Positions 6,595 to 31,618 of a stretch of 64,000 bases of DNA are shown piece after piece. The DNA comes from a virus: IMG/VR virus record IMGVR_UViG_3300002835_000007, positions 25,748-89,747 of that record. One strand, 5' to 3'. A program made the position numbers and the translations under genes. Every line of letters begins with the position of its first letter. Within the stretch, counting starts at the first letter, position 1. Under the pieces are notes generated by a model. That model saw nothing but the letters and a program-made list of their open reading frames with translations, did not search any database and was not told the origin of the DNA.

Positions 6595-6617
6595 TAGAAA
6601 CTAAAAAATAAATAAAT

Positions 6618-6809: not shown

Positions 6810-6810
6810 T

Positions 6811-7988: not shown

Positions 7989-7996
7989 ATAAAAAT

Positions 7997-8884: not shown

Positions 8885-8896
8885 AAAAAAAACATT

Positions 8897-9127: not shown

Positions 9128-9129
9128 TT

Positions 9130-9672: not shown

Positions 9673-9701
9673 ATTAGTATTTTAGGGTAAAATATTTAAT
9701 T

Positions 9702-11686: not shown

Positions 11687-11687
11687 T

Positions 11688-12140
11688 ATGATTAAAACAA
11701 TAGCAGCTGGTGTATTTATTATTAATAAAAATAATAAAGTATTGATTTGTCACCCAACAAATCATAAACCAAATACATGGAGCATACCAAAAGGTAAGAT
11801 TGAAGCATTAGAAACTTTTGCTGAAGCTTGTATAAGAGAAACTTTTGAAGAAACAAACATAGATTTATCAGATTATAAAGATAAATTGATTATGTTGGAT
11901 AGTGTGAACTATTCACATAAAAAGAAAATGTTAATTCCTTTTGTTTTATTTGAGAATGATTGTGAGTTATTAGATTTAACTATGGTAACTTTACAATGTA
12001 ACTCAAATGTTCCAGAAGATAGAGGTGGATTTCCAGAAATGGATGGTTATGATTGGGTTACAATTGATGAAGCAAGAAAACTATTACATCCAACACAAGT
12101 TGCATGTTTAGATAAGGTTAAACAATTATTTTCAAGATGA
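11688..12140 (+). CDS. Nudix hydrolase
   Basis: 150 aa; Nudix box GKIEALETFAEACIRETFEETNI fits Gx5Ex7REUxEExGU. Confidence 0.8.
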   Translation: MIKTIAAGVFIINKNNKVLICHPTNHKPNTWSIPKGKIEALETFAEACIRETFEETNIDLSDYKDKLIMLDSVNYSHKKKMLIPFVLFENDCELLDLTMVTLQCNSNVPEDRGGFPEMDGYDWVTIDEARKLLHPTQVACLDKVKQLFSR

Positions 12141-12355
12141 TGAGATTAGATTTACATGGGGTTAAACACCACGAAGTTTCCAGAAAAGTAGATGAATTTA
12201 TCTGGGAAACTATTCAGAAGAAGAAGACACAAGCTGTTATTATAACTGGCAAGTCTACACCAATGAAACAATTAGTTAAAGATTGTTTAAAAGATTATGA
12301 CGCTAAATGTTTTGATTTGTTTGATGGTGGAAGTTTAGTTGTAGATTTATTTTAA
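12137..12355 (+). CDS. Smr-domain protein (small MutS-related nuclease domain)
   Basis: 72 aa; LDLHGVKHHEV...AVIITGKS matches the Smr signature (LDLHG...ITGKG). Confidence 0.55.
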   Translation: MMRLDLHGVKHHEVSRKVDEFIWETIQKKKTQAVIITGKSTPMKQLVKDCLKDYDAKCFDLFDGGSLVVDLF

Positions 12356-12361
12356 AATAAA

Positions 12362-12393
12362 TTTGCAAAATAGAAAAAAAGTTAGTACATTTG
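12362..12393 (+). promoter_or_regulatory. Bacteroidota-type promoter (TTTG / 20 nt / TACATTTG)
   Basis: TTTG 12362-12365; TACATTTG 12386-12393; ATG 12418. Confidence 0.55.
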
Positions 12394-12417
12394 AGTATAT
12401 AATTAAAAAGTAAATAA

Positions 12418-13659
12418 ATGAGTGATGTAAAAAAAGTATGGAATGAAGATGATAGTAGATTATATCTTTCTTTTCCATCAAAAGAATTTGACCTATTAGA
12501 TAATGGTGCTGTTTACAGTATTGGTATTGATGAAATGGGCCGTTTCTTCTTAACGAAGAAAAGTGATGGTTATAAGTTTGATTACAAACTTTATGGTTTG
12601 GAAACAGATTTTGTTAACCGAGTTATTAAAACATACGGTAAAACACAAGGAAACTTGGGTATTTTATTGAATGGTATCAAAGGTACTGGTAAAACAGTTA
12701 GTTCTAAATTGATTGCAACAAAAATCAATTTGCCAATTATCGTAGTTGATAGAAAAATAGATGGTGTTCATACTTTCTTAAACACTATCACACAAGACAT
12801 CACAGTTTTTATTGATGAGTATGAAAAGATTTATGGTGAATCTTCTCAAATGTTAACCATTATGGATGGTGCGTTAAACTCAACATACAGACGTTTGTTT
12901 TTGTTAACTACCAACGAGTTATATGTTGATAGAAACATCATTGAACGTCCAAGTCGTGTACGTTATTTGAAAGTGTTTGGTAATCTTAAACCAGATGTAG
13001 TTGAAGAAATTGTTGATGATATTTTAGAATACACACAATTCAAAAAAGAATGCATTTCATTTATTTCTAGTCTTGAAACAATTACAATTGATATTGTAAA
13101 AGCAGTATTGAATGAAGTAAACATCCATGAAGAAGCTCCGTCTGCATTTGAAAACGTGTTCAACGTTAAGAAAATCAAAGGTAACTACAATGTTAACCTT
13201 GTTGAAGATGGAAGTTTAAGCAAATTGGCTAAAAACGTTAGAGTTTATCCAAAACCAACTTATGCTGATAATTCAATCGGTTACCACTTTGAAATTGATG
13301 GTCAATCAATCGGTATGATTACTAGAATCATTAACTGGACAACTATCGAGGTGTCACCATACACTGATAGAAAAGGTAAACTAGTAGGTTTTGATGAACC
13401 AATTATCTTAAAAATTGAAGATGCTGATACTGTTAACTACGCATACAGCTATGGTTCATTTGATGAGTTTGGTATTCCAACAAATGCAGCAGCAGTATCT
13501 ACAACAAAAGAAGTTTCACCAATTGCTAATAGAATTTTAAAAGCAATTGAAAAATCTGATGAAGAAGAAGATGAATCAGACAATGATGTTGTTGAAATGA
13601 AAGTATCATCTATACCATTAGTTGATGATAGTTTTGAATCTAAAACAATATGTGAATAA
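12418..13659 (+). CDS. AAA+ ATPase family protein
   Basis: 413 aa; Walker A GILLNGIKGTGKT and Walker B-like FIDEYE; acidic C-terminal tail. Confidence 0.6.
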   Translation: MSDVKKVWNEDDSRLYLSFPSKEFDLLDNGAVYSIGIDEMGRFFLTKKSDGYKFDYKLYGLETDFVNRVIKTYGKTQGNLGILLNGIKGTGKTVSSKLIATKINLPIIVVDRKIDGVHTFLNTITQDITVFIDEYEKIYGESSQMLTIMDGALNSTYRRLFLLTTNELYVDRNIIERPSRVRYLKVFGNLKPDVVEEIVDDILEYTQFKKECISFISSLETITIDIVKAVLNEVNIHEEAPSAFENVFNVKKIKGNYNVNLVEDGSLSKLAKNVRVYPKPTYADNSIGYHFEIDGQSIGMITRIINWTTIEVSPYTDRKGKLVGFDEPIILKIEDADTVNYAYSYGSFDEFGIPTNAAAVSTTKEVSPIANRILKAIEKSDEEEDESDNDVVEMKVSSIPLVDDSFESKTICE

Positions 13660-13668
13660 AAAATAAAT

Positions 13669-13689
13669 AAGGGGACAATTGTCCCCTTA
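13669..13689 (+). terminator. hairpin (possible terminator) after AAA ATPase gene
   Basis: Perfect palindrome AAGGGGACAATTGTCCCCTTA, followed by a T-rich tract. Confidence 0.55.
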
Positions 13690-13704
13690 TAAATTTAAAA
13701 TTAA

Positions 13705-14085
13705 ATGACTAATAAAGTTAAAATAAAATTAAAAGACATAGTTCAATCTAAAAAACAGATTCATTGGTCCAAAAAACAATTAAATATGATTGATGGGATT
13801 TCTGATAATTATGATGAGGATATAAGTTTAATATGGGTCACAAAATTTAACGAAATTATTGATGGACATCATAGATATGAAATATTGATTAATAAATTTG
13901 GTGGTGAACATGAGATAACGGTAAGACAATTTAATGTGTCAAAAAAAATATTTAAAACAATAGTTTATATTTTTTTACCATTATCTTTAATTATTTTATT
14001 ACCTTTGTATTTAATTATTGAACGTTTTAAATTTAAAAAATGGCAAAGAAAAAAAGAGAACATAGAATTAATGATGAAATCATAG
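13705..14085 (+). CDS. ParB-like nuclease-domain protein with C-terminal TM anchor
   Basis: 126 aa; DGHHR motif (IIDGHHRYEIL) followed by hydrophobic IVYIFLPLSLIILLPLYLII. Confidence 0.4.
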   Translation: MTNKVKIKLKDIVQSKKQIHWSKKQLNMIDGISDNYDEDISLIWVTKFNEIIDGHHRYEILINKFGGEHEITVRQFNVSKKIFKTIVYIFLPLSLIILLPLYLIIERFKFKKWQRKKENIELMMKS

Positions 14086-14537
14086 CAAGAACTGTAAGAG
14101 TTGATGGTGTTATTATGTCTATTCAAGAAGCATTACATAAAGCTGAACAATCTGAAATGGATTTGGTTTTAATTAATGATAATGCTGAACCTAAAATATG
14201 TCGCATATTAAACTATCAAAAGTTTTTATACGAACAAAAAAGAAAAGACAAAGAAAAGAGTAAATCACTTGAACTTAAAGAAATAAAGTTAGGACCAAAC
14301 ACATCTGAAAATGATTTATCTTATCGTTCTAAACACATTATTGAGTTTTTGGATAAAGGACATAAAGTAAAACTTACTATGCAGTTCAGAGGTCGTGAAA
14401 TGGCCTTTGTTTCCAAAGGTGAGTTGATTATGTTAAAATTGATTGATTCGATTTCAGAACATGGGTTGCCAGAAAGTATGCCAAAGATGGAGGGTAAAAG
14501 AATGCAATGTCTTCTAAAACCAAAAGTTAAGAAATAA
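14040..14537 (+). CDS. infC: translation initiation factor IF-3
   Basis: 165 aa. Colinear with bacterial IF3: N-domain INDEIIARTVRVDG...DLVLIN, linker, and C-domain KEIKLGPNTSENDLSYRSKHIIEFLDKGHKVKLTMQFRGREMAF. Overlaps the previous ORF by 46 nt. Confidence 0.85.
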   Translation: MAKKKREHRINDEIIARTVRVDGVIMSIQEALHKAEQSEMDLVLINDNAEPKICRILNYQKFLYEQKRKDKEKSKSLELKEIKLGPNTSENDLSYRSKHIIEFLDKGHKVKLTMQFRGREMAFVSKGELIMLKLIDSISEHGLPESMPKMEGKRMQCLLKPKVKK

Positions 14538-14573
14538 CCTTGACACTTTAAGAAAAAATACTTATTGTTGTGT

Positions 14574-15212
14574 ATGATTTTATTTATACAACAATATTTG
14601 TCGGAATACTACTATATTAAAACCAGTGAAGTTGGTAATGATGGAATTTATTCCATTATTGATGAAAGACGTATTCCGATACCATTCAATGGTGGCAAAC
14701 TCATAAAAGAGATTGTTACCATTTTTGGTTTAGAAGAAGATGTTTTAAAATCATATATAGAAAGTTGGGCTGTTTCAATAAAACCAGATGTAGATTTGGA
14801 ATTTTATTGGAAAACAACAGAAGACTTATTTGGTTTTCCAATTGCACACCAAATAGCAGCAACCACTATTGCTATGGATTTGGTTGCAGTACAACCGATG
14901 GACGGACCAAGAGGTGAGTTATTATATATGGATTTCCAATATGGTGTTGACACAGCAACTGGTGATTCACAAACAGTTACAGCAACAACTAGAAATGGTC
15001 GTGTTTATAATGAAGAAATATATAGACAGAGTTGGGGTGATATGGTAGCACAATTATCTGAAAACCAACAAAATCATATATTTGGAGAATTAGACCACCC
15101 AACACCAGCTATAAACATAACTGTAAATGATAGAGATGATTCGATAGTGTATAGTGCATTAAATAAATGGAAAGATATTATTGGGATATCTAGTAGAAAA
15201 TTTGGAGAATAG
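14574..15212 (+). CDS. hypothetical protein
   Basis: Track start 14565 is a TTG; ATG at 14574. Contains IAMDLVAVQPMDGPRGELLYMDF, which resembles the T4 gp23/gp24 signature (ICGVQPMNSPTGQVF). The protein is only about 212 aa. Confidence 0.45.
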   Translation: MILFIQQYLSEYYYIKTSEVGNDGIYSIIDERRIPIPFNGGKLIKEIVTIFGLEEDVLKSYIESWAVSIKPDVDLEFYWKTTEDLFGFPIAHQIAATTIAMDLVAVQPMDGPRGELLYMDFQYGVDTATGDSQTVTATTRNGRVYNEEIYRQSWGDMVAQLSENQQNHIFGELDHPTPAINITVNDRDDSIVYSALNKWKDIIGISSRKFGE

Positions 15213-15232
15213 AAAAGTTTTGTGTACATTTG
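15201..15232 (+). promoter_or_regulatory. Bacteroidota-type promoter (TTTG / 20 nt / TACATTTG)
   Basis: TTTG 15201-15204; TACATTTG 15225-15232; ATG 15248. Confidence 0.55.
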
Positions 15233-15247
15233 TAGATATTTACTAAT

Positions 15248-15595
15248 ATGAACGTTATGAATATGTTTAAAAGTAGGAAAGGTAAGATAAAAAGTGTTTT
15301 AGAATATAAACTTGGTAATAAGTTAGATGATAATGATATCAATGACATATTAGAAGTTTTTGATGTGTATCAAAAAGATAATTTAGATAGCATTGATAAA
15401 TTAAAGCGAGATAAAGTTTACGAAACAAAAAGAATTAGTGGTGCATTGAAACAAACAATCAATGCTCATGGACCAATTACTAAACAATTCATTGGTTCAG
15501 CAACCAAAAGGGTTTATGGGTCATTGTTAAACAACGAAAAGAAAGAAAGTTTTATAATAAGATTATGGAAAAAGATATGGAAAAAACAAAAATAG
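15248..15595 (+). CDS. hypothetical basic protein
   Basis: 115 aa ORF with its own promoter (15201-15232). Confidence 0.45.
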   Translation: MNVMNMFKSRKGKIKSVLEYKLGNKLDDNDINDILEVFDVYQKDNLDSIDKLKRDKVYETKRISGALKQTINAHGPITKQFIGSATKRVYGSLLNNEKKESFIIRLWKKIWKKQK

Positions 15596-16095
15596 CAATA
15601 TTTGATTTTGATGGGACATTGGTTAACACACCGATGCCAGATGAAGGTAAAGATTTATACAAAGAAAAGACTGGCAAAGAATGGCCGCATAAAGGTTGGT
15701 GGTCTAAACCAGAATCATTAGACTTAGATGTTTTTGAAATGCCTACAGTTGATGATGTAATTGTTGATTACGTATTAGAAGCAGCAACAAAAGATACAAT
15801 CATTGTTATGTTGACTGGTCGTATGCAAAACTTATCAGATAGTGTTAAAAAAATATTAGATGCACATGGTCTTATGTTTCACGAATACCATTTCAACAGA
15901 GGTGGCAGCACTGAATATGCTAAAATGAATACTATGGATGATTTACTTAATAAATACCCATCAGTTAGAGAAATAAAAATGTGGGATGATAGAGATGAAC
16001 ACATTCCAATCTTCAAAGAATGGGGAGATAAAAAAGTATCATCTGGTAGATTAGACAAGTTTAAAATTAAACATGTTATTCAAAATAGACATTGA
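15565..16095 (+). CDS. HAD-like hydrolase
   Basis: 176 aa; HAD motif I IAIFDFDGTLVNT. Confidence 0.5.
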   Translation: MEKDMEKTKIAIFDFDGTLVNTPMPDEGKDLYKEKTGKEWPHKGWWSKPESLDLDVFEMPTVDDVIVDYVLEAATKDTIIVMLTGRMQNLSDSVKKILDAHGLMFHEYHFNRGGSTEYAKMNTMDDLLNKYPSVREIKMWDDRDEHIPIFKEWGDKKVSSGRLDKFKIKHVIQNRH

Positions 16096-16100
16096 AAATG

Positions 16101-16130
16101 AACCCACTAAGAAATTAGTGGGTTTTTTAT
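16101..16130 (+). terminator. rho-independent terminator
   Basis: AACCCACTAAGAAATTAGTGGGTT followed by TTTTT; the next promoter's -33 box follows immediately. Confidence 0.8.
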
Positions 16131-16161
16131 TTGTAATTTAAGAATATTATACATACATTTG
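16130..16161 (+). promoter_or_regulatory. Bacteroidota-type promoter (TTTG / 20 nt / TACATTTG)
   Basis: TTTG 16130-16133, directly after terminator 16101-16130; TACATTTG 16154-16161; ATG 16183. Confidence 0.55.
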
Positions 16162-16182
16162 TAATAATTAATAATAAGAGTT

Positions 16183-16740
16183 ATGTTAAAAGAAAATTTT
16201 AAAAATAAGTTAATAGAAAGTTTCAATGATAATCAACATGATAATTTAAACGTTGGTGGGTTAATTTCATTTATGGAAAATTCAGATGTTAATTATTATA
16301 TGGCTGATTTGAATGGCCCTATGGGTATGGCAACTATTAATGGTGTTTATATAGATATTAACAATATATTATCTAAATTTGGGTTCCCAATTGGAACAAA
16401 CACTATGCTGCTTTATTTTATCATACTACACGAGACAGCTCATATGAAAAGAATAATTAAATTAGGTAAGGATAAAGTGTTAGAGAAATTATCATTAACA
16501 GACTTTAATGATTTTTTTGAACATATTATTAATGAAGAATTAATTGCTGATAATTATGGTTGTTTAATTTATTATCTTTTAAACAAAAAGAAATATCCTT
16601 CTTATTACACACAGAATTTAGGTGACGCAAAAAATAAAGAAAGATACAAACAAACTGCCAGAGGTTTTTACGGGCAAATACAAAATGATGAGACAAAATA
16701 TAACAAACTTGTCAATAGATTTATAAAAAAAATATATTAA
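16183..16740 (+). CDS. hypothetical protein with HExxH motif (possible metallopeptidase)
   Basis: 185 aa; ILHETAHM. Confidence 0.35.
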   Translation: MLKENFKNKLIESFNDNQHDNLNVGGLISFMENSDVNYYMADLNGPMGMATINGVYIDINNILSKFGFPIGTNTMLLYFIILHETAHMKRIIKLGKDKVLEKLSLTDFNDFFEHIINEELIADNYGCLIYYLLNKKKYPSYYTQNLGDAKNKERYKQTARGFYGQIQNDETKYNKLVNRFIKKIY

Positions 16741-18726
16741 ATGATTAAAATAAATGATATAATAGAAGGGAAGTTAAGTATGAACGCAAGTGGTTCTGCT
16801 TATTTGGTGAGTGAGAATATACCAAAAGATATTTACATACACAAATCTAAAACAAACAAAGCGTTACATTTAGATAAAGTTAAAATAGAGGTAATCCATG
16901 GACAAGGACGTTCTATAGAAGGTAAAGTAATTGAAATTGTAGAACGATTTAGAACAGAATTTGTAGGTACAATACAAATAAGTGAGAAGTTCGCTTTCTT
17001 TGTACCAGATTCAAATAAAATAATAATTGATTTCTTTATACCTTTGAATAAATTAAATGGTGCTATACATGGTCAAAAGGTTGTTGCAGCATTGACTGAA
17101 TGGAAAGAAGACGCTAAGAACCCTAATGGTAAAATAGTTAGAGTTATTGGTAATTCTGGTGAACACGAAACGGAAATACATTCAATCTTAGAAGAATACG
17201 GATTACCTTATGATTTCCCAGATGATGTAATAGCAGAGTCTGAAGCAATATCAGAAGAAATACTACAATCTGAAATAGAGAAACGTATAGATATGCGTGA
17301 TGTGTTGACATTTACCATTGACCCACATGATGCAAAAGATTTTGATGATGCGTTGAGTGTTAGATGGGTTGATGGAGTATTGGAAGTTGGTGTTCATATC
17401 GCTGATGTGGCACACTACATGCGACCAGAAACTGAATTGGATAGAGAAGCGTTTGCTAGAGGAACTAGTGTTTACCTAGTGGATAGATGCGTGCCAATGA
17501 TACCAGAGAAGCTTTCTAACGGACTTTGTTCACTAAGACCACACGAAGATAAGCTTTGCTTTTCAGTGGTGTTTAAAATCGACCAAAATGGACGTGTGAT
17601 GGATGAGTGGTTTGGTAGAACAGTAATACATTCTGACCATAGATTTACATATGAAGAAGCACAATCGATAATTGAGGTAGGTAAACTACCTAAAGATGCT
17701 ATCGCTGAAGGTGAAACCTTAATATTTGAAAAATCTGGGTTAGGTTCTGTTGTTGGATGGGATAAAGCAACCAATTTAGGTAATGCTATATTGGTGTTGG
17801 ATAAATACGCTAAGAAAATGCGTAAGGTAAGATTTAGCAAAGGTTCTATTTCATTTGACAAACATGAAGTTAGGTTCAAGTTAGATGAAAACAACAAACC
17901 AATTGATATTATATTCAAGATTGGTAAGGATTCCAACAAATTGATTGAAGAATACATGTTATTGGCTAACAGACATGTTGCTCAGTTTATTAATCAAAAA
18001 GGTTTACCAATGGTTAACAGAGCTCATGATAAGCCAGATGAAGCTAAATTAGAAAGTCTTAAAGATTTCATTCATCAATTTGGTTATGAGATTAAAGTTG
18101 ACACACCAGAAGAAACAACTAAATCTTTGAATAAGTTGCTGCGTGATGTAAGAGGTACTAGTGAAGAAGAAATGATTACTAATCTTGTAGTTAGAACAAT
18201 GCAGAAAGCTGATTATAGAACAAAGAATATTGGTCACTATGGTTTAGGTTTCAAACATTATGCTCACTTTACAAGTCCAATCAGACGTTATCCAGATGTT
18301 ATTGTACATAGATTGTTAGCGTTGTATTTAGATGATACTAGAAAGACTAACCCTAACATTGCTAAATTAGATGGTAAGTGTACACATTTATCTGAAAGAG
18401 AGAAGAAAGCACAAAAAGCTGAACGTGATAGCATTAAGTTCATGCAATGTGTTTATATGTCAGATAAGGTAGGTAAAGTTTACAAAGGTATGGTAACTAG
18501 TGTTGCTGAATTTGGGTTGTTTATTACTATCGAAGAGAATGGTTGTGATGGGTTAGTTAAATTATCTGACATAATGGGTGACACATTTGTTGCGGATACT
18601 GAAAATTACCGAGTTAAAGGTACTAAAACTGGTGCTTATTTACGTTTGGGGGATGAAGTTCATGTAGTCGTAACGTCTGTTGATATTGAAAAAAAGAACA
18701 TTAATTTATCATTAATTAACCTATAG
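16741..18726 (+). CDS. rnr: RNase R / RNase II-family 3'-5' exoribonuclease
   Basis: 661 aa; N-terminal OB/cold-shock-like region, RNB catalytic domain (DPHDAKDFDDALSV) and a C-terminal S1 domain (KGMVTSVAEFGLFITIEENGCDGLV). Confidence 0.85.
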   Translation: MIKINDIIEGKLSMNASGSAYLVSENIPKDIYIHKSKTNKALHLDKVKIEVIHGQGRSIEGKVIEIVERFRTEFVGTIQISEKFAFFVPDSNKIIIDFFIPLNKLNGAIHGQKVVAALTEWKEDAKNPNGKIVRVIGNSGEHETEIHSILEEYGLPYDFPDDVIAESEAISEEILQSEIEKRIDMRDVLTFTIDPHDAKDFDDALSVRWVDGVLEVGVHIADVAHYMRPETELDREAFARGTSVYLVDRCVPMIPEKLSNGLCSLRPHEDKLCFSVVFKIDQNGRVMDEWFGRTVIHSDHRFTYEEAQSIIEVGKLPKDAIAEGETLIFEKSGLGSVVGWDKATNLGNAILVLDKYAKKMRKVRFSKGSISFDKHEVRFKLDENNKPIDIIFKIGKDSNKLIEEYMLLANRHVAQFINQKGLPMVNRAHDKPDEAKLESLKDFIHQFGYEIKVDTPEETTKSLNKLLRDVRGTSEEEMITNLVVRTMQKADYRTKNIGHYGLGFKHYAHFTSPIRRYPDVIVHRLLALYLDDTRKTNPNIAKLDGKCTHLSEREKKAQKAERDSIKFMQCVYMSDKVGKVYKGMVTSVAEFGLFITIEENGCDGLVKLSDIMGDTFVADTENYRVKGTKTGAYLRLGDEVHVVVTSVDIEKKNINLSLINL

Positions 18727-18764
18727 ACTTTATTTTTTAAGTTTTATTTAGTATATTAGGGATT

Positions 18765-19568
18765 ATGAATGATGTTATATTTATTAATCAATATTTAGAT
18801 AAAAACTATACTGTTATTACTGGCAACCTTGATTATTTAATCAAGGATACTATAGATGATAAATCTATGGGGTTTTTAGATTTTAAAAAAGTTTTTATAA
18901 AAATATTTGGTGATTTTAAGTCAAGTGAAGAATCATCAACATCTATTATCATTTTAAATTCATGGTTTAATAATAAAAAAAGAATTTTAAATAAAAAACT
19001 ATTTGATTTATTTGATGAAGTTGATGATGGTAGTCTGAAAAGTCTTTTCCTATTAAATAAAATAAAAACTGTTTGTGATTCAGATTATAAATATGAATTT
19101 CACCATGATTTTATCACAAATGTGTTTATTGAATATTATAAAGATAAATACATGTTGCATAAATTAGAGAATTATGTTAAGACATTCAATACTGATTTTG
19201 GAAGTGTTAAAATGATGAACGATTTTCAAGATGATTTTATTTTAGAACATGAAAAAATAATATCATTCGCAAAAGAATATCTAAATAATTGGTATAGTGA
19301 AACTGTTATTGGTAGTAAAGTTAAAGATTTACTATCACAATTAGTATTGACACTAGGTTCTAGAAACTGGGTAGTGACTTGGATTGGTCATGGACCATTC
19401 AGCAAAAAAAGATTATTAGAAAAATTCATAAACGAAAGTACATATCATCATGATTACATATTAAATATGTATGACAAATGGTATGGAGATGCAGTTATTG
19501 ACGCATCTGAAAGAGTCATGGGAAGAAATCTAGGTATCTTTTCAAGTGGCAGAATAACATTACAATAA
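18765..19568 (+). CDS. hypothetical protein
   Basis: 267 aa ORF. Confidence 0.45.
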   Translation: MNDVIFINQYLDKNYTVITGNLDYLIKDTIDDKSMGFLDFKKVFIKIFGDFKSSEESSTSIIILNSWFNNKKRILNKKLFDLFDEVDDGSLKSLFLLNKIKTVCDSDYKYEFHHDFITNVFIEYYKDKYMLHKLENYVKTFNTDFGSVKMMNDFQDDFILEHEKIISFAKEYLNNWYSETVIGSKVKDLLSQLVLTLGSRNWVVTWIGHGPFSKKRLLEKFINESTYHHDYILNMYDKWYGDAVIDASERVMGRNLGIFSSGRITLQ

Positions 19569-19577
19569 AACTAAAAT

Positions 19578-19910: not shown

Positions 19911-19911
19911 A

Positions 19912-20277
19912 ATGAAACATTTTCTAATCGATATCGATGGAACTATATGTGATGATATAAAGAATGAAGATTCACATTTATACATAATAGCAAAGCCGAT
20001 AGAAGGTTCTATTGAACAAATAAATAAATGGTATGATGAAGGTCATACCATTACTTTTTTCACTGCACGTGAAGAAAAAGATAGAGGTCTGACAACATTT
20101 TGGTTAGATAAATATAAAATTAAATACCATGGTCTTATAATGGACAAACCTAGATGCGTCAACGATGATGATGAATACGTTTGGATTGACAACAGACCAG
20201 TTAGAGGTATTACCTATAAAGGTATCTGGGGTAATCTTAAAGAAGTTGTAAAAAAGATTTTAACTTTTGGTGATTAA
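19912..20277 (+). CDS. HAD-like hydrolase (possible nucleotidase)
   Basis: 121 aa; HAD motif I FLIDIDGTICDD. Confidence 0.45.
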   Translation: MKHFLIDIDGTICDDIKNEDSHLYIIAKPIEGSIEQINKWYDEGHTITFFTAREEKDRGLTTFWLDKYKIKYHGLIMDKPRCVNDDDEYVWIDNRPVRGITYKGIWGNLKEVVKKILTFGD

Positions 20278-20280
20278 AAA

Positions 20281-20311
20281 TTGTTTTATTAAAAATTTAT
20301 TCATACATTTG
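20281..20311 (+). promoter_or_regulatory. promoter with -7 TACATTTG and weak -33 (ATTG)
   Basis: TACATTTG 20304-20311; ATG 20332. Confidence 0.45.
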
Positions 20312-20331
20312 TAGAAACTAAATTATATTAT

Positions 20332-20880
20332 ATGAAGTATTCAATTAGAATTAGCGGATATGGTTCTGAGATAACCATAGGTGCCGTTTCAGAAGAAGAA
20401 AAAGCAATCCTTTCAAATACAGAAAAGGACTTACAAGAACTTGTATTTGAAGACCTAGAAGAAGTTTGTGGTTGGAGTGAGATTGATGACCAATTCCATT
20501 GCTTTGGTGCAACAACACCTTTTACAATTACAATTGAAGATGAAGAAGGTAAAGAGTTATATAAAATAGATGAAGAAAATATCTATGAATATGACACAGA
20601 AGAATTCTCATTGGTTGAGAATGAGTATCCAGAAATCGATGCAACACAAGACTTATTGATTTGTTACAGTGGTGAGAAAGGTTCTTTCTTCCTAGGGTAT
20701 GTTGAATTAGAAGGTGAGTTTGACATAACAAAATTAAAAATAGTTTTCTCCGATGTTGAAGTTGGTGATTTTTTCTATTTTGGCGATATCATTTCCAACG
20801 TTCTTTACGATGGTGAGGAATTAGATAACTGGGGTGGTGATACTAGTGGTAAATCATTTGACGTTCTTAAAAATTTTTAA
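20332..20880 (+). CDS. hypothetical acidic protein
   Basis: 182 aa ORF with its own promoter (20281-20311). Confidence 0.45.
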   Translation: MKYSIRISGYGSEITIGAVSEEEKAILSNTEKDLQELVFEDLEEVCGWSEIDDQFHCFGATTPFTITIEDEEGKELYKIDEENIYEYDTEEFSLVENEYPEIDATQDLLICYSGEKGSFFLGYVELEGEFDITKLKIVFSDVEVGDFFYFGDIISNVLYDGEELDNWGGDTSGKSFDVLKNF

Positions 20881-20881
20881 C

Positions 20882-22141
20882 ATGAGTTTATTAGATAGTT
20901 TTAAAAATACTTTTTTGTATTGTGATAAATACAAAACACATTCAGAAGCAGTAATTATTGCTTGTTATTTTAACCCACAAGGTAATCCTTATAGGAAAAT
21001 AGCGTTCAATAAGTTTTATGAATCAATTAAACATTTGAACCATAGAATAATTGAGTGCGTGATTGGTGATGCTGAAGCAGAATTACCAGAGAACAAATAC
21101 ATAAGTAGAGTTCATACATCTAATTTACTTTGGCATAAAGAATCTTTATTGAATAAAATCATATCTGAATTACCTAAGAAGTTTAAATACGTATTTTGGT
21201 TAGACACTGATGTATTGTTCACAAACAAAAAATGGTTAGTTGAAAGTGTTGAATCATTAAAAACTAACAAAATATTACAACCATTTGAATATTGTGTTCA
21301 TTTAGAAAAAGATTTGTATCAACCATTGTTTGATGTGGAAAAAGAAAAGAAATTTGTGGGTAATCCTACAACTAGACATCCAAAGATGTGGAGAAGTTTC
21401 TGTGCAAACCACAATACATCAAAATATATTTCATGTGACACAAACTATGACAAACATGGTCATGTTGGTTTTGCGTGGGGTGCTAGACGTGAAGTGTTAG
21501 ATGAAATGCCATTATACGATAAAGCACTTATAGGTGGTGCTGACCATATTATGGCACATGCTGCCGCTGGACAAATTGGTCACTCATGTATTACAAAAGC
21601 ATTTACTGATGACATTAAAGCAATTAATGATTGGTCTGTGTTGTTTTATAATGTAATCAATGGTGAGATTGGTTATGTTAAAGGTGAGTTGTACCATATT
21701 TGGCACGGTGATTTGGGTAAAAGACAATATTTAAAACGTATTCAAGACTTTACATCAAAAGCTAAAACTATTACTGAACGTGATGAAAATGGTTTGTTTA
21801 TCACAAAGAATGGTGATGATGAATATGTAAAACAATATTTTAATCATCGTGAAGATACAACTGAAGAAACATTAGTTGATGACGAAAGTAAGAATAAAAT
21901 AAGAGAAGAAGTACGCAAAAAACAAGCTCGTAATGTTCTTAGACAACAATACCCAGATGCTGATAATTCATTTATCGAATCTATGATTGTTGGTTATTTG
22001 AGTGATTCAACAATGTTGGGTACAGCAATAGGTGGTGATTTAACTGGTGCTATTATAGGAGACATGTTAAATTCCAATGATGATACTGATAAGTACAGCG
22101 GTGGTGATTTAAGTGAACATAACGAAGAAAACTTTTCATAA
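20882..22141 (+). CDS. hypothetical protein (possible nucleotide-sugar transferase-like, DxD-type LDTDV)
   Basis: Track start 20834 is a GTG inside the previous gene; ATG at 20882 (MSLLDSFKN...). 419 aa. Confidence 0.45.
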   Translation: MSLLDSFKNTFLYCDKYKTHSEAVIIACYFNPQGNPYRKIAFNKFYESIKHLNHRIIECVIGDAEAELPENKYISRVHTSNLLWHKESLLNKIISELPKKFKYVFWLDTDVLFTNKKWLVESVESLKTNKILQPFEYCVHLEKDLYQPLFDVEKEKKFVGNPTTRHPKMWRSFCANHNTSKYISCDTNYDKHGHVGFAWGARREVLDEMPLYDKALIGGADHIMAHAAAGQIGHSCITKAFTDDIKAINDWSVLFYNVINGEIGYVKGELYHIWHGDLGKRQYLKRIQDFTSKAKTITERDENGLFITKNGDDEYVKQYFNHREDTTEETLVDDESKNKIREEVRKKQARNVLRQQYPDADNSFIESMIVGYLSDSTMLGTAIGGDLTGAIIGDMLNSNDDTDKYSGGDLSEHNEENFS

Positions 22142-22144
22142 TAA

Positions 22145-22831
22145 ATGAATATAACATTCATAAGCGATACGCACAATCAACATAATCTTATCCCCAAAGA
22201 CTATTTGTCTGGTGGGGATATGATTATTCATGCTGGTGACATGACATCAAGAGGTGGTGAACATGAAATCGTAGCATTTTTAAATTGGTATAACGAATTA
22301 CCATATACATATAAAATACTGATAGCTGGTAATCATGATTTCTTTTTTGAAAGACCAGATAAAAAGATGATAACAAAACTATTATCCAAATACCCAAACA
22401 TTACTTATCTAAATGATAGTGGTGTTGAGATTGAAGGTATAAAGATTTGGGGTAGTCCAGTGCAACCTTATTTTGGTGGTTGGGCTTTTAATAGAGTTGG
22501 TGAAGAGATAAAGAAACATTGGGATTTGATTCCAAAAGACACAAACATCATTGTAACACATGGACCAATCTTTGGTTATTTGGATATGACGTTGGAAGGT
22601 GTTAGGACTGGTTGCGAGTATCTAAGAGAAATGTTACCAACGTTCACTGATTTAAAAATACATGTGTGTGGTCACATACATGAGCATTATGGTAGACATG
22701 AGTTTGCTGATGGTCAGTTGTTTCTTAACGCTAGTGTATTAAACAGACGTTATGAGATGCAGAATAGACCAATATTTTTAGAATATGGAAATAATTCTTC
22801 GTTAGAACTTGGTTATATTAAAAAAAATTAA
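22145..22831 (+). CDS. metallophosphoesterase (calcineurin-like phosphoesterase)
   Basis: 228 aa; motifs ISDTHNQHN, HAGD, AGNHDFF, VTHGP, GHIHEH. Confidence 0.7.
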   Translation: MNITFISDTHNQHNLIPKDYLSGGDMIIHAGDMTSRGGEHEIVAFLNWYNELPYTYKILIAGNHDFFFERPDKKMITKLLSKYPNITYLNDSGVEIEGIKIWGSPVQPYFGGWAFNRVGEEIKKHWDLIPKDTNIIVTHGPIFGYLDMTLEGVRTGCEYLREMLPTFTDLKIHVCGHIHEHYGRHEFADGQLFLNASVLNRRYEMQNRPIFLEYGNNSSLELGYIKKN

Positions 22832-22839
22832 TACATTTG
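22809..22839 (+). promoter_or_regulatory. promoter with -7 TACATTTG and weak -33 (CTTG)
   Basis: TACATTTG 22832-22839; ATG 22855. Confidence 0.45.
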
Positions 22840-22854
22840 TAAAAATAAATTATT

Positions 22855-23145
22855 ATGATGAATAACAAATACAAAGGGTTGCCTAGTGTTGTTCTATTGA
22901 ACTCTGAAGGTGACATACTAAAAGCATTTAAAACCGAACAAGGGTTTATGATTATGGACGAATATAAAGAAATCATTGCAACATTGAATCAAGATGAGTT
23001 GTTTGATTTTACACGTGGTAAATTAACACTTACAAACTCTAAGGATGAGTTCTTTGACTATACAACATTTTCTGGTGACATGAAACCAAATTTAAAGATG
23101 TTAGACGAGTTCATAGGAATAGATACTAATGGTTTAACTTATTAA
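22855..23145 (+). CDS. hypothetical protein
   Basis: 96 aa ORF. Confidence 0.45.
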   Translation: MMNNKYKGLPSVVLLNSEGDILKAFKTEQGFMIMDEYKEIIATLNQDELFDFTRGKLTLTNSKDEFFDYTTFSGDMKPNLKMLDEFIGIDTNGLTY

Positions 23146-23155
23146 AAATAGAATA

Positions 23156-23506
23156 ATGAAACAAAGAAGAAAAGCAATTGAAGGAAAATTGATAGGTGAG
23201 AGCAAGACCTCGCCTGGTTATTTTAAATACCAATTCACTATCTTAGAGTTAGATGGTACTACACATGAAATACCAGCATATGGTAAAGATATGGAAGATG
23301 CATTAGAACGTCTTGTATGGGTAGAAAGAACTGAAAAGAAACCATTCAACATTATGGTTATCACAGCATTGCTAACTATTATAGTCGTACCATCAATCAT
23401 TGCAGCGTTGACAAGTAATCCAGTTTGGGTATTGGGTGCATTAGGGTTGGCAATACTTTATGGTATTGTTATGGTAAGAGTTGATAAATACTTTAATAAG
23501 AAATAA
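23156..23506 (+). CDS. hypothetical membrane protein
   Basis: 116 aa; C-terminal TM helices. Confidence 0.45.
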   Translation: MKQRRKAIEGKLIGESKTSPGYFKYQFTILELDGTTHEIPAYGKDMEDALERLVWVERTEKKPFNIMVITALLTIIVVPSIIAALTSNPVWVLGALGLAILYGIVMVRVDKYFNKK

Positions 23507-23507
23507 T

Positions 23508-23705
23508 ATGTTTGACGGGTTAGCTACTTTACTTTTCGTAGGATTGGTATCCTTTGGTTTGTTGCTTATGGTAGGAGGGTATTTTTTGATTAATTATTTT
23601 TTTATAGAAGACACATATGAAGTATCAACACCCATAAAACCACAAATAAAATTGGTAACAGACGGAAAGACCGTTGACACCGTTTACGTATATAAATTTA
23701 ATTAA
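23508..23705 (+). CDS. small membrane protein
   Basis: Track start 23481 is a TTG; ATG at 23508 (MFDGLATLLFVGLVSFGLLLMVGGYFLI...). Confidence 0.4.
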   Translation: MFDGLATLLFVGLVSFGLLLMVGGYFLINYFFIEDTYEVSTPIKPQIKLVTDGKTVDTVYVYKFN

Positions 23706-23706
23706 G

Positions 23707-23901
23707 ATGAAATTAAGTAATAAAGTTTCGATTTGGGTATATTTCCTTGCTATGATTGCTGGTGTTTTTAATGCGTACCTATCTTATAAAGAAGGCAACG
23801 GTGATGCTGCATTCGCATGGATGGTATCAGCTGGTTTAGCTGGTGGTGCACTGGGTGCACATTTAGAAATTAAAGAAAATAAAGAAAACTATGACAAGTA
23901 G
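23707..23901 (+). CDS. small membrane protein
   Basis: Track start 23674 is a TTG; ATG at 23707 (MKLSNKVSIWVYFLAMIAG...). Confidence 0.4.
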   Translation: MKLSNKVSIWVYFLAMIAGVFNAYLSYKEGNGDAAFAWMVSAGLAGGALGAHLEIKENKENYDK

Positions 23902-24130
23902 AGATTTTGCATTCTGGTTGCAAGGCTTCTTTGAAGTTGCAAACCCAAGTACTATCGGCTCAAAAGAAACTGAATCGATTAAGAATCATTTAGCGTTAGT
24001 ATTTAAACATGAAATAGACCCAAGCATGGGTGATGAAAAACATCAGCAAATATTGAATGAAATTCATACTCCTAATAAATTTGATGGTTATTTAAGACCA
24101 CCTAATGAAGATGGTGTAATGCGTTGCTAA
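23891..24130 (+). CDS. hypothetical protein
   Basis: 79 aa ORF. Confidence 0.4.
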   Translation: MTSRDFAFWLQGFFEVANPSTIGSKETESIKNHLALVFKHEIDPSMGDEKHQQILNEIHTPNKFDGYLRPPNEDGVMRC

Positions 24131-24131
24131 T

Positions 24132-24326
24132 ATGGATAAGGTTGAAGTTATTGGATGTGAGGGTAAGATTTTTACACCTCACATCTTTTTAGATAGATTG
24201 GATACTAACATTACTAAAGGTGATTGGGTTGTATATTACGATGTTTTATATAAGTTTGATGATTCTTTCTTTTTGAGTAGACCAATAGTTGATTATAAAC
24301 AATTAATTAAAGTTAAATATGAGTGA
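24132..24326 (+). CDS. hypothetical protein
   Basis: 64 aa ORF. Confidence 0.35.
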   Translation: MDKVEVIGCEGKIFTPHIFLDRLDTNITKGDWVVYYDVLYKFDDSFFLSRPIVDYKQLIKVKYE

Positions 24327-24501
24327 ATTTCAAGTACACAATACTGCCGAATGTTCCGATGGACCAAAGTCTGGTGGTATAGTTTTAAAAGAATTTATCA
24401 TACGTTGGGATTACAACGGTGATGGAAAGATATTAGTTACATTGAATAATGAAAATGATAAACTAATACAAAGTATTGAACATGTAAAATCAAAAGCATA
24501 A
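24319..24501 (+). CDS. hypothetical protein
   Basis: 60 aa ORF. Confidence 0.35.
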   Translation: MSEFQVHNTAECSDGPKSGGIVLKEFIIRWDYNGDGKILVTLNNENDKLIQSIEHVKSKA

Positions 24502-25547
24502 TGGGAATCTGGGGTTTAATTGGAATGATAAGCGGTGCATTGGTATCAATATGGGCTGCATTTAAATTTATTATTGGTCAAAGTTTTAGATTAGATGATA
24601 ATCTTAGTAAGAATGTGCTGCCAATAGTACAAGGGTTAAAGTATAAGTTTGAGTTGAATAATGAAATTTCAATCAACAAAAGATACCCTAGCACATATAG
24701 TGCTTTTGCTTTCTTGGGTGGTATACCAATATACTTTACTAGAACTGAAAGGTTGTTAACTGCTGGTTGGCAATCAAAAGAATTAATTTCTGAAGTATAT
24801 TATTTCAGATGGCATCGTAAAAAGATTGAGAAAGTAATCAAAGATATTGCTGTTAATAAGAAACACACAAACGTTATGGCACTTATGCCATGGGGTTCTG
24901 ACAAGTTAGGTCAGATGACTAGGGAAAGTAACCCTAAAGTTTATATAGATGATAAACAATACAAGGATATTGAAAAGGATATTGAAGGTATCTTGGAAAG
25001 AAAGTCTGGTAAAACAAGTGCTTTATTACACGGAAAACCTGGTACTGGTAAGACAAGACTAATAAAATATCTGTCTTTGAAGTATGATTTACCTATATAT
25101 TCAATATTTTTGAATCCAGAGTACAATAACTTTGATATTTTAAGTATGTTTGCTGATGTACCAGAGAGATGTATTGTATTATTTGAAGATTTTGATAACT
25201 ATTTTAACAAAAGAGAATGCATAATGAAACATAATGAAGTTAAATTTACGTTCGATGTGTTACTTTCTGTGTTGGATGGCGTTTATAATGAATACAACCA
25301 AGTGTTTTTCGCTATGACATGCAACGATATTGAAAAAATAGATGATTCTTTGAAAGATAGACCATCAAGATTCAAGTTTGTAAGAGAAATTACTGGCCCA
25401 TCATACGCAAAACGATTAGAAATATTAGATGGGGATATAGAATTAGCCGAATTAACTGAAGGTTTAACTACTGATAAGGTATTCTTCGCTAAATCAATGT
25501 CTGGTTTATATAAAAATACTGAAATATTAGATAAAATAAAGGTATGA
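24501..25547 (+). CDS. AAA+ ATPase (BCS1-like) with N-terminal TM segment
   Basis: 348 aa; Walker A LLHGKPGTGKT and Walker B VLFEDFD; hydrophobic N-terminus. Confidence 0.65.
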   Translation: MGIWGLIGMISGALVSIWAAFKFIIGQSFRLDDNLSKNVLPIVQGLKYKFELNNEISINKRYPSTYSAFAFLGGIPIYFTRTERLLTAGWQSKELISEVYYFRWHRKKIEKVIKDIAVNKKHTNVMALMPWGSDKLGQMTRESNPKVYIDDKQYKDIEKDIEGILERKSGKTSALLHGKPGTGKTRLIKYLSLKYDLPIYSIFLNPEYNNFDILSMFADVPERCIVLFEDFDNYFNKRECIMKHNEVKFTFDVLLSVLDGVYNEYNQVFFAMTCNDIEKIDDSLKDRPSRFKFVREITGPSYAKRLEILDGDIELAELTEGLTTDKVFFAKSMSGLYKNTEILDKIKV

Positions 25548-25741
25548 AGATATTGAAAATAGAAGACCACAACTATAAAATCATCTATATAAACAATAAT
25601 GAAGTTTATAATGTGTATAGAAGATTAAGCAGCACTGGATGGGAAAAGTTTTCAGTTAATAGAAACAAATGGTACGCTGTTGAAGATAAAACAGATGTAC
25701 AAGAATTAGAAAAAGCATATGAAAATAGTAGCATTGGGTGA
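25544..25741 (+). CDS. hypothetical protein
   Basis: 65 aa ORF. Confidence 0.35.
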   Translation: MKILKIEDHNYKIIYINNNEVYNVYRRLSSTGWEKFSVNRNKWYAVEDKTDVQELEKAYENSSIG

Positions 25742-26423
25742 TACCCACGGAAGAGATAAATGGAAAGATATTGTAGCGAAAGAACTAGAATCTAGTGATA
25801 GGATAGTTTTTATTGGTGATTACTTTGATACACATGATGACGTTACACCAGAACAACAATTATCTAACTTCAATGAGATAATTGAATTCAAGAAAGCAAA
25901 CATAGATAAGGTTATCCTTTTAATAGGTAACCATGACTTCCATTATTTAAGTGGCATTAACGAAAGTTATTCTGGTTTTCAGTATGGTTGGTCTAAACAA
26001 TTTAATGAAGTTTTAGAGTCTGCATTAGCTGACGGGTTGATGCAGATGTGTTATGTATATGATAAGTATGTATTCACGCATGCTGGTGTTACCAACACAT
26101 GGTGTGTAACTTATAGTGTAAACAGATTACCTAACAAGATAGAAGATTCCATCAACAATTTGTTTAAAACTAATAAGTATGCGTTTTATTTCCAAATGGG
26201 TGAGAACTATAGTCAAAGTGGTAATGATGTAACGCAGTCACCTATATGGGTAAGAATTCCATCATTGTTCAGAGATGGAGTGGATGACTTTACGTTTGTA
26301 GTTGGTCATAGCACACTTAAAGAGCTGACTATCACTGATAGATTAATTGGTATTGACACATTGGGTGTGACTGGAGAATACTTAGTTATTAACAACGAAA
26401 AAATTACGGCAGAAATGCCGTAA
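25719..26423 (+). CDS. PPP-family Ser/Thr protein phosphatase (lambda-phosphatase-like metallophosphatase)
   Basis: 234 aa; GDTHGR, GDYFD and GNHDFHY motifs. Confidence 0.7.
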   Translation: MKIVALGDTHGRDKWKDIVAKELESSDRIVFIGDYFDTHDDVTPEQQLSNFNEIIEFKKANIDKVILLIGNHDFHYLSGINESYSGFQYGWSKQFNEVLESALADGLMQMCYVYDKYVFTHAGVTNTWCVTYSVNRLPNKIEDSINNLFKTNKYAFYFQMGENYSQSGNDVTQSPIWVRIPSLFRDGVDDFTFVVGHSTLKELTITDRLIGIDTLGVTGEYLVINNEKITAEMP

Positions 26424-26427
26424 AAAA

Positions 26428-26459
26428 TTTGTTTTAATCATTTTAATCTATTACATTTG
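26428..26459 (+). promoter_or_regulatory. Bacteroidota-type promoter (TTTG / 20 nt / TACATTTG); -7 box ends 4 nt before ATG 26464
   Basis: TTTG 26428-26431; TACATTTG 26452-26459. Confidence 0.55.
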
Positions 26460-26463
26460 CACT

Positions 26464-26670
26464 ATGGAAGAAAAAGATGAGATAGAATTATTACTAAAAA
26501 CACAATCGTTAGATATTGAAACCTTACGTAGGTTAAAATGTAGGTGTTTAAGTTTACGTGAATATGAATTAGCAGCAAAAATAATATTTGAGGAACGAAG
26601 GCTAAATGTTAGTAGATTAGAGAAGTTAGGACTAAATATAAAATCAAATGAAAACGATAGTAAAAAATAA
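26464..26670 (+). CDS. hypothetical protein
   Basis: 68 aa ORF; -7 box ends 4 nt before the ATG. Confidence 0.4.
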   Translation: MEEKDEIELLLKTQSLDIETLRRLKCRCLSLREYELAAKIIFEERRLNVSRLEKLGLNIKSNENDSKK

Positions 26671-27088
26671 GCGTGGGTACTATGAGTACACCATATTGGA
26701 GAAGTATGTTGCTGGAATCAAATTACAAGGTTCAGAAGTTAAATCTATTCGTTCTGGAAAGGTATCGATAGTTGAAGCATATTGTTTTATTGCCAACGAT
26801 GAAATCTTTATCAAAGGTATGCACATCGCAGAACACAAAGAGGGTGGTAAACATAACAACCACATACCAATTAGGGATAGAAAACTCCTTATGAATAAGA
26901 AAGAAATTGTTAAATTAAAACAACAAATTTCACAAAAAGGCTTGACTATTGTACCGTTAGAGGTTATATTAACTAATATTGGATTCATAAAGTTAGAGTT
27001 AGGTTTAGCCAAAGGTAAAAACTTACATGACAAAAGGGAGACAATAAAAGAAAAGGATTTAAAAAGAGAATTAGAACGTAATTTATAA
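26648..27088 (+). CDS. smpB: SsrA-binding protein SmpB
   Basis: 146 aa; colinear with bacterial SmpB (KNKRGYYEYTILEKYVAGIKLQGSEVKSIRSGKVSI...IPIRDRKLLMNKKEI...KLELGLAKGKNLHDKRETIKE). Confidence 0.9.
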   Translation: MKTIVKNKRGYYEYTILEKYVAGIKLQGSEVKSIRSGKVSIVEAYCFIANDEIFIKGMHIAEHKEGGKHNNHIPIRDRKLLMNKKEIVKLKQQISQKGLTIVPLEVILTNIGFIKLELGLAKGKNLHDKRETIKEKDLKRELERNL

Positions 27089-31545: not shown

Positions 31546-31618
31546 TGATAATAGGGGACGCTGAAAACCTAGACAGAGTAGGCAAATAATAAAAGTTAAA
31601 TAAAAAAAAAAGAAAAAA

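Follow-up and report, generated by a model that had tools for sequence, protein, structure and literature searches.

Smr, IF3, RNase R and SmpB homologues in an accessory-gene region of a Mahaphage-related jumbo phage

We have analysed a stretch of 64,000 nucleotides of viral DNA (positions 25,748 to 89,747 of the IMG/VR record IMGVR_UViG_3300002835_000007), referred to here as the window. On its plus strand, within 14,952 bp (12137-27088), lie homologues of four bacterial proteins that act in translation and RNA turnover: a stand-alone Smr domain, initiation factor IF3, the exoribonuclease RNase R and the SsrA-binding protein SmpB. A preliminary description, made from the sequence letters, had placed the four genes at these same positions and had read them as a single toolkit for ribosome rescue and translation surveillance. 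The identities hold. Families were assigned with Pfam at the gathering score, with the NCBIfam equivalog cut-offs and with PHROGs; all four proteins score above the curated family cut-offs, with matches far beyond chance, and the four homologies survive the profile, structure and family cut-off tests. PHROG families exist for phage IF3, RNase R and SmpB, and there is none for Smr. The coordinates are collected in Table 1. In the remaining 49 kb of the window we detected no further translation-factor gene, and none (S21, IF1 or others) was present among the 78 small or unassigned open reading frames (ORFs).

Table 1. Genes of the window considered in the text, the four main genes first (aa, amino acids; positions are those of the window).
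Feature	Position	Strand	Basis or group
Stand-alone Smr-domain protein, 72 aa	12137-12355	+	Pfam Smr (PF01713), E=1.8e-8, 34.8 bits (cut-off 25.7)
IF3, 165 aa, both domains	14040-14537	+	IF3_N 70 bits (residues 10-73), IF3_C 96 bits (residues 78-162)
RNase R-type 3'-5' exoribonuclease core, 661 aa, CSD1-CSD2-RNB-S1	16741-18726	+	RNB 361 bits, CSD2, OB_RNB, S1
SmpB, 146 aa, full C-terminal tail GKNLHDKRETIKEKDLKRELERNL	26648-27088	+	Pfam (PF01668), 178.1 bits (cut-off 27)
NUDIX hydrolase, 150 aa	11688-12140	+	Pfam NUDIX, E=1.4e-16
HAD_SAK_1 phosphatase-like protein (RNA-repair-associated HAD family)	15565-16095	+	Pfam PF10307, E=5.5e-15
185-aa protein with HETAH (HExxH zinc-protease-like) motif	16183-16740	+	Translation; no Pfam, NCBIfam or PHROG match
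Sigma-70 family factor (RpoS/RpoD-like)	27111-27971	+	Sigma70 r1.2, r2, r4
NAMPT, 539 aa	77-1312 (C-terminal part)		NAD+/ADP-ribose cluster
329-aa NUDIX protein; YAcAr			NAD+/ADP-ribose cluster
NADAR	1312-1800		NAD+/ADP-ribose cluster
Macro	1800-2258		NAD+/ADP-ribose cluster
HAD_SAK_2	2836-3309		NAD+/ADP-ribose cluster
dCMP deaminase	3302-3736		NAD+/ADP-ribose cluster
SIR2	5016-5780		NAD+/ADP-ribose cluster
PRPP-synthetase-like protein	6811-7857		NAD+/ADP-ribose cluster
ECF sigma factor	9121-9672		NAD+/ADP-ribose cluster

The window has a GC content of ca. 30%, with almost all of its genes on the same strand. Its SmpB protein recurs with identical sequence in many independent assemblies, on contigs of up to 205,931 bp, and over 120 related clusters come from contigs of 200-350 kb. 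In IMG/VR we counted 8 loci for SmpB (67-90% identity) and at least 102 for RNase R, the contigs reaching 362 kb; a megablast of the window against the phage collection gave no near match. The nearest bacterial SmpBs, among those sampled, were overwhelmingly from Bacteroidota (44-57% identity). A Shine-Dalgarno-like core precedes just 2 of 75 ORFs, fewer than the 4.2% expected at random, and the 17 nucleotides (nt) upstream of the start codons of the window ORFs are 53% A; the scarcity of the one and the A-rich leaders are consistent with the Shine-Dalgarno-independent initiation found in Bacteroidota. The sequence is indeed that of a phage, as had been assumed, and the window comes from a genome of 206 kb or more, a relative of the "Mahaphage" lineage infecting Bacteroidota, a clade that holds the largest Bacteroidetes phages (Al-Shayeb 2020, PMC7162821). 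The four-gene stretch itself is part of a jumbo-phage accessory-gene region, where host-derived genes of translation, RNA decay and RNA repair stand beside those of nucleotide metabolism and NAD+ salvage.

A close counterpart is already in the literature. The 338,752 bp genome RTP_PHAGE_33_21, assigned to the Mahaphage clade in the supplement of Al-Shayeb 2020, carries in the same order a NUDIX gene (164144-164599), a 74-aa Smr (164596-164820), an AAA gene, IF-3 (167092-167583), RNase R (170799-172772) and the SsrA-binding protein (178293-178739). The N-terminus of its RNase R, MINIGDILEGRLSMNASGSAYL, is ca. 77% identical to that of the window over the 44 residues shown, and its best bacterial matches are likewise Bacteroidetes. 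The window is nevertheless a distinct genome of lower GC, and the published record labels its Smr a "hypothetical protein". IF1, IF3, tmRNA and SmpB are listed there among the translation genes of huge phages, and RNase R and Smr are not discussed (PMC7162821). The gene set as such is therefore known, and what is new here is the Smr assignment and the discussion of RNase R. Just upstream of the NUDIX-Smr pair of RTP_PHAGE_33_21 there is also a 112-aa fragment annotated as methionine-tRNA ligase (163803-164141), which may be a stand-alone tRNA-binding domain, a guess made from its size.

For the comparisons we grouped the related loci into clade A (35 loci, RNase R 58-87% identical) and clade B (45 loci, ca. 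47% identity). None of the four genes is pseudogenised in the relatives. We found 14 distinct intact ORFs for Smr, 21 distinct intact orthologues for IF3, 18 distinct intact ORFs for SmpB and 79 complete intact ORFs for RNase R, and the ratios of nonsynonymous to synonymous substitution rates (dN/dS) against the window were 0.06-0.20, 0.09-0.25, 0.08-0.13 and 0.11-0.15, respectively, that is, 0.06-0.25 overall.

The phage SmpB passes both NCBIfam equivalogs (TIGR00086, 180.4 bits against a cut-off of 130; NF003843, 176.9 against 119.1) and aligns end to end with the protein of T. thermophilus (residues 2-143 against 2-142 of 144). Its basic C-terminal tail, which in SmpB is inserted into the empty mRNA channel, can be aligned up to the last residues with the tails of solved SmpBs, and within it G123, K124, D128, K129, K136, D137 and R140 are invariant in the clade (GK..DK...KD..R). 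No gene for the RNA partner was found beside it, in agreement with the preliminary description. In the 64 kb of the window ARAGORN detected neither tRNA nor tmRNA, and Rfam gave no tmRNA at the gathering score or at E<=1; ca. 14 kb of flanking sequence taken from other assemblies was equally negative. Along similar lines, 93 related loci (1.6 Mb in total) contained no tmRNA within 10 kb of SmpB or RNase R, save for one false positive: a "permuted tmRNA" called by ARAGORN in the clade-B locus L078, which Rfam did not confirm and whose tag peptide was implausible, so that we rejected it. The complete 642-kb relative LR756502 encodes SmpB and has 46 tRNAs, and neither ARAGORN nor Rfam, run over the whole genome, gave a tmRNA. 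As a positive control, ARAGORN did detect the tmRNAs of Bacteroidota control loci. The matches listed for a generic pattern of the tmRNA 3'-end in IMG/VR were on unrelated contigs, none of them of clade A, and were uninformative.

A complete genome with SmpB and without tmRNA implies reliance on the tmRNA of the host. It has been shown that H. pylori SmpB complements an E. coli delta-smpB mutant, so a heterologous SmpB can serve a foreign tmRNA, and one phage is known to depend 10,000-fold on host trans-translation. Since its tail is complete, the phage SmpB most likely works with host tmRNA, as far as can be judged from its sequence, and the earlier suggestion to this effect is plausible. Because the tail is also under selection, genuine trans-translation would be favoured over the mere sequestration of tmRNA. 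Some phages, such as the mycobacteriophage Bxz1 group, Bacillus phage G and the OM43 phage Melnitz, also carry one half of the trans-translation pair; in their case it is the RNA, and in the available portions of the reports (PMC4131195, PMC9004378) no smpB is described, whereas in the window and in LR756502 there is SmpB and no tmRNA was detected. The lineage of the window looks like the converse of these tmRNA-only phages.

Other small RNA genes do occur around SmpB in the relatives. Long tRNA-like genes of 98-99 nt lie ca. 2.4 kb upstream of SmpB in the loci L011 (7498-7596 and 7875-7973), L021 (16228-16326 and 16605-16703) and L045 (18445-18543); ARAGORN assigns them a 4-base anticodon "gccc" and the Rfam tRNA model scores them at 42-46 bits. 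Ordinary tRNAs are found between RNase R and SmpB in several relatives, and none in the window. In LR756502 a tRNA-rich part of the genome contains a full-length GOLLD RNA (RF02032, 275 bits; L109 38685-39091, at ca. 434.7 kb) with a tRNA directly after it.

The RNase R had been described as full-length and recruited by SmpB-tmRNA, and the sequence does not bear this out. The protein belongs clearly to the RNase R type, reaching 681.5 bits with TIGR02063 (cut-off 597.85), and the four-Asp catalytic motif is present (DPHDAKDFDDA). However, the N-terminal helix-turn-helix (HTH) domain is missing, the alignment with B. subtilis RNase R beginning at its residue 70 and that with the E. coli-type model covering positions 83-725 of the 813, and so is the tail of the C-terminus, rich in lysine and arginine (K/R-rich): the protein ends 3 aa past S1 and has 2 K/R among its last 25 residues. 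This is a general trait, as 79 out of 79 complete viral orthologues (522-688 aa) end at S1 and are devoid of both HTH and K/R tail. In E. coli, association with ribosomes, non-stop decay dependent on tmRNA-SmpB and proteolysis dependent on SmpB all go through the K/R region, and protease recruitment needs the HTH. Lacking the appendages for recruitment by tmRNA-SmpB and for SmpB-dependent proteolysis, the phage enzyme is probably a free, unregulated exonuclease. The HTH is also what sets RNase R apart from RNase II, and the phage protein does resemble E. coli RNase II (rnb) in the order CSD1-CSD2-RNB-S1 and in size (661 aa against 644 aa), but with the RNase II equivalogs it obtains only 191-229 bits, against cut-offs of 542 and 642.

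IF3 has both domains in place and reaches 151 bits against the NCBIfam infC equivalog (TIGR00168, cut-off 60); its PHROG is phrog_9787. The gene starts with ATG after an A/T-rich leader, and the N-terminus MAKKK/MKKNK is kept in the relatives. In E. coli infC has a non-canonical AUU start codon that is used for autoregulation, a regulatory trait that does not define the family. With its ATG start the phage gene would not be subject to autoregulation of that type.

The Smr protein was harder to place. As a single sequence it gave no significant match in the PDB, and a profile of 14 sequences reached the Smr domain of MutS2 only at E=0.3. The fold was settled instead by structure prediction and Foldseek: the AlphaFold (AF2) model (predicted local distance difference test score, pLDDT, of 85.5) has a beta-alpha-beta-alpha-beta-beta fold, and its top five matches in the PDB are the Smr domains of MutS2 and N4BP2, with template modelling (TM) scores of 0.61-0.78 and a probability of 1.0. 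Across the 14 aligned clade sequences D5, L6, H7, G8, H11, T37, G38, S40, M43 and K44 are invariant. The catalytic residues that had been expected are there in part. The DxH motif is kept as D5-L6-H7, whereas the second motif reads T37-G38-K/N-S40 in place of (H/T)GxG and is one residue shorter than that of MutS2 in the profile alignment. In SmrB the DxH is needed for activity, and a change of GxG to GAG was without effect in vivo.

What this small protein does not have is an extension for docking to the ribosome. The three bacterial SMR clades each bring a docking module (the hook of proteobacterial SmrB, the body of MutS2, and KOW in the KOW-SMR proteins of Bacteroidetes), and SmrB reduced to its SMR domain alone does not bind ribosomes. 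In the 72-aa phage protein the domain extends from residue 2-4 to the C-terminus, leaving no room for a uS2 hook, a KOW domain or the clamp and ATPase of MutS2. An exhaustive search of representatives showed that such proteins form a family of 312 representative clusters, nearly all of 70-80 aa, of which a word-indexed search had retrieved 3 proteins. The top match of the family search, P0124, is a low-complexity repeat protein of 3041 aa and was discarded as an artefact.

In every relative that has Smr, the gene directly upstream is the NUDIX hydrolase. The stop codon of NUDIX and the start of Smr overlap by 4 nt, an arrangement that is identical in RTP_PHAGE_33_21. The closest solved chains to the NUDIX protein are the Nudix domains of the mRNA-decapping enzyme Dcp2 (E=2e-7, over the N-terminal 60 residues only), a weak similarity from which decapping can be proposed only tentatively. 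For the mini-Smr an endonuclease activity is probable, and its translation is coupled to that of this Dcp2-like NUDIX, probably its functional partner.

The order of the genes in clade A is NUDIX-(Smr)-(AAA)-IF3-...-HAD_SAK_1-...-RNase R-...-metallophosphoesterase-SmpB-sigma. This order probably does not make a single toolkit of them. Smr is present in 19 of the 35 loci and absent from 16, so the mini-Smr is dispensable in the clade, and IF3 is present in 27 and absent from 8. RNase R and SmpB are separated by 3.4-11 kb in which the intervening genes vary; in the window they are 7.9 kb apart, with ca. 17 genes between them. The intervening genes code for AAA ATPases, HAD and PNKP-like phosphatases, metallophosphoesterases, a glycosyltransferase-like protein and a DPBB protein, and have no evident tie to ribosome rescue. 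Outside the clade the four genes are dispersed or absent. Clade B has RNase R alone, Smr, IF3 and SmpB being absent from the 10 kb to each side of it. In LR756502, which is also a Mahaphage, 295 kb separate RNase R, at 71 kb, from SmpB, at 368 kb, the latter 5.5 kb from the 46-tRNA array, and neither IF3 nor Smr was detected.

Nor is the linkage a legacy of the presumed host, as in the sampled Bacteroidota genomes rnr was never within 10 kb of smpB, and the two were adjacent in two Firmicutes loci only. In the S. pneumoniae operon the two genes are genetically linked on one strand as in the phage but, in the available portion of the report (PMC3534368), they are adjacent and co-transcribed. 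A naive estimate of the chance of finding the four genes so close, 4 x (15/206)^3 = ca. 0.0015, suggests that the clustering is non-random if only four such genes exist. This is tempered by the fact that phage accessory islands routinely concentrate host-derived genes. In our reading, the linkage reflects the collinearity, at the level of the clade, of an accessory island whose most stable members are RNase R and SmpB.

There are several possible explanations for this assemblage. The one we favour, with moderate confidence, is that the four genes are independent and functional add-ons of host origin gathered in an accessory island, and not one co-evolved rescue pathway. Judging by homology, each factor would help to keep the translation and RNA-turnover apparatus of the host working for the phage. 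IF3 would add initiation and subunit-dissociation capacity in a system without Shine-Dalgarno sequences, and SmpB, with its mRNA-channel tail intact, would load host tmRNA onto ribosomes stalled on broken mRNAs. The trimmed core of RNase R would degrade structured RNA, contributing to the turnover of host and damaged RNA and to nucleotide recycling, and the mini-Smr would be an accessory nuclease tied to NUDIX. Some points weigh against this explanation. The four-gene order is kept in ca. 35 contigs, which could mean co-function and not the mere collinearity of a young clade; the requirements for a K/R tail and for a hook derive from E. coli alone; and a phage tmRNA may lie in the ca. 128 kb of the phage genome outside the tmRNA scans. 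The opposite explanation is a unified surveillance, in which Smr would cut mRNA where ribosomes collide, the ribosomes upstream would be rescued by SmpB together with tmRNA of the host or of the phage, RNase R would destroy the non-stop mRNA and IF3 would reset initiation. The genes are intact, under purifying selection and collinear across the clade, the tail of SmpB needed for trans-translation is conserved, and some Firmicutes co-transcribe RNase R with SmpB, as far as the accessible part of PMC3534368 goes. Besides, the sequence from SmrB to tmRNA to RNase R is known in E. coli, and the phage proteins have the homologous catalytic domains (the DLH of Smr, SmpB with its tail and the RNB core of RNase R). 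However, the functional chain rests on features of the E. coli proteins that the phage ones do not have. RNase R is devoid of the HTH and of the K/R-rich tail needed for recruitment to ribosomes with tmRNA-SmpB, Smr has neither the N-terminal uS2 hook of SmrB nor the KOW or MutS2 modules, its GxG is changed to G-x-S, and no tmRNA gene appeared in the sequence scanned, either in the window or within 10 kb of SmpB or RNase R in the related loci. The phage genes are not contiguous either, with 2-8 kb of unrelated genes between them, and Smr and IF3 are often missing. We regard one unified pathway as distinctly unlikely, and the toolkit reading as supported in part, in what concerns the presence and preservation of the genes, the lack of a tmRNA in the window and a plausible pairing of SmpB with host tmRNA; none of the results lends support to the leaderless mRNAs that had been suggested.

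Part of the evidence could also be accommodated by an island that counteracts RNA damage inflicted by abortive-infection ribonucleases and NADases of the host, SmpB freeing the ribosomes on cleaved mRNAs, RNase R clearing the fragments and repair enzymes mending the tRNAs. The four genes are interspersed with HAD_SAK_1, HAD_SAK_2, a PNKP-like HAD and two metallophosphoesterases, HAD_SAK_1 is kept near RNase R in all the clade-A loci, the genes directly upstream include NAMPT, NMNAT-NUDIX-like, PRPP-synthetase-like, NADAR, Macro and SIR2, and phage genes that ligate tRNAs cut by host defences have been noted (Al-Shayeb 2020, PMC7162821). These domains are, however, tied to defence by family name only, and we detected no RNA ligase or polynucleotide kinase domain in the window. 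We consider this role unlikely, if still worth serious attention; it overlaps with the add-on explanation and does not exclude it. Somewhat less credible to us is a machinery for the demolition of host RNA, in which the Dcp2-like NUDIX, the Smr endonuclease and the unregulated RNase R core would turn host mRNA and rRNA into nucleoside monophosphates for phage DNA synthesis and shut off the host, with SmpB and IF3 as unrelated passengers. It would agree with an RNase R stripped of the elements for its SmpB-dependent proteolytic control and found in viral contigs far more often than Smr, IF3 or SmpB, with the coupling of NUDIX and Smr and with the nearby dCMP deaminase, PRPP-synthetase-like protein and DHFR, but the decapping assignment it needs comes from the weak partial match to Dcp2, and Smr domains nick DNA too. 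Bolder, and in our opinion improbable, is the idea of a Bacteroidota jumbo-phage lineage running its own mRNA surveillance and decay with the phage SmpB, an RNase R core freed of SmpB and protease control and a minimal Smr with its Dcp2-like NUDIX. Such a lineage would borrow only the tmRNA of the host, its recruitment rules would be unlike those of E. coli (for example via the conserved HExxH or AAA proteins), and the whole would be tuned to translation without Shine-Dalgarno sequences. Finally, the four genes are close homologues of universal bacterial genes, and several "phage" database records with rnr and smpB side by side resemble bacterial fragments, so one could think of plain host genes mis-assembled or mis-binned with a phage. 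This contamination is effectively refuted, its probability being negligible: the arrangement recurs in many independent assemblies (JGI, ENA, Logan, NCBI) and in ca. 35 IMG/VR contigs, phage-type genes and unidirectional small ORFs surround the four, the SmpB is well diverged from its closest bacterial relatives and the RNase R architecture is distinct.

Were the four genes to make up a rescue pathway run by the phage, it would mean that viruses take over translational quality control beyond tRNAs and initiation. As the evidence stands, the window is one more genome in a pattern already described, and finding IF3 or SmpB in a huge phage would come as no surprise to a specialist. To this known pattern we make modest additions. 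One is that the viral RNase R is consistently a trimmed core without regulatory and recruitment appendages. Another is the presence of SmpB without tmRNA in a complete huge-phage genome, the mirror image of the phages that carry tmRNA only. The third is a widespread family of stand-alone Smr proteins with an intact DxH, coupled to NUDIX and hidden as "hypothetical" in a published genome.

Some of the genes that accompany the four are conserved as well. HAD_SAK_1 is located 0.6-4 kb upstream of RNase R in 35 out of 35 clade-A loci, and the 185-aa HExxH protein, whose stop codon abuts the start of RNase R, is kept upstream of it in most of them. On the other side, the sigma factor is found 0.4-0.7 kb downstream of SmpB in almost all the relatives (ca. 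1.6 kb in L009 and L010). It is one of two phage sigma factors in the 64 kb, one RpoS/RpoD-like and the other of ECF type (Table 1). Between IF3 and RNase R, at 14565-15212, a 215-aa protein matches, over a short segment, T4 Gp23 in its N-terminal region (profile positions 10-61) and the major-head and prohead-protease PHROGs; the segment may be a propeptide or capsid-targeting-like piece on a non-capsid protein. In clade B a homologue of this protein is found ca. 3.2 kb from RNase R, on the opposite strand.

The first part of the window (1-12140), together with its upstream flank (L094, 1-10000), is occupied by a cluster of genes related to NAD+ and ADP-ribose (Table 1). It resembles the gene sets with which phages salvage or reconstitute NAD+ and reverse ADP-ribosylation (anti-defence). 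Further downstream, a DUF805b RNA motif (RF02914, 35.8 bits against a gathering score of 35.6) at 31551-31584 is located 35 nt upstream of a Band_7/SPFH gene (31619-32401); the motif is also present in LR756502 (L107, 46751-46785). The only block of the window on the minus strand, at 43712-48617, consists of four paralogous genes of 479, 331, 331 and 479 aa, with the common N-terminus MRRFDKKK.I.EANLRLE, 40-45% identity within each size class and no Pfam match. Both GC and AT skew flip at this block.

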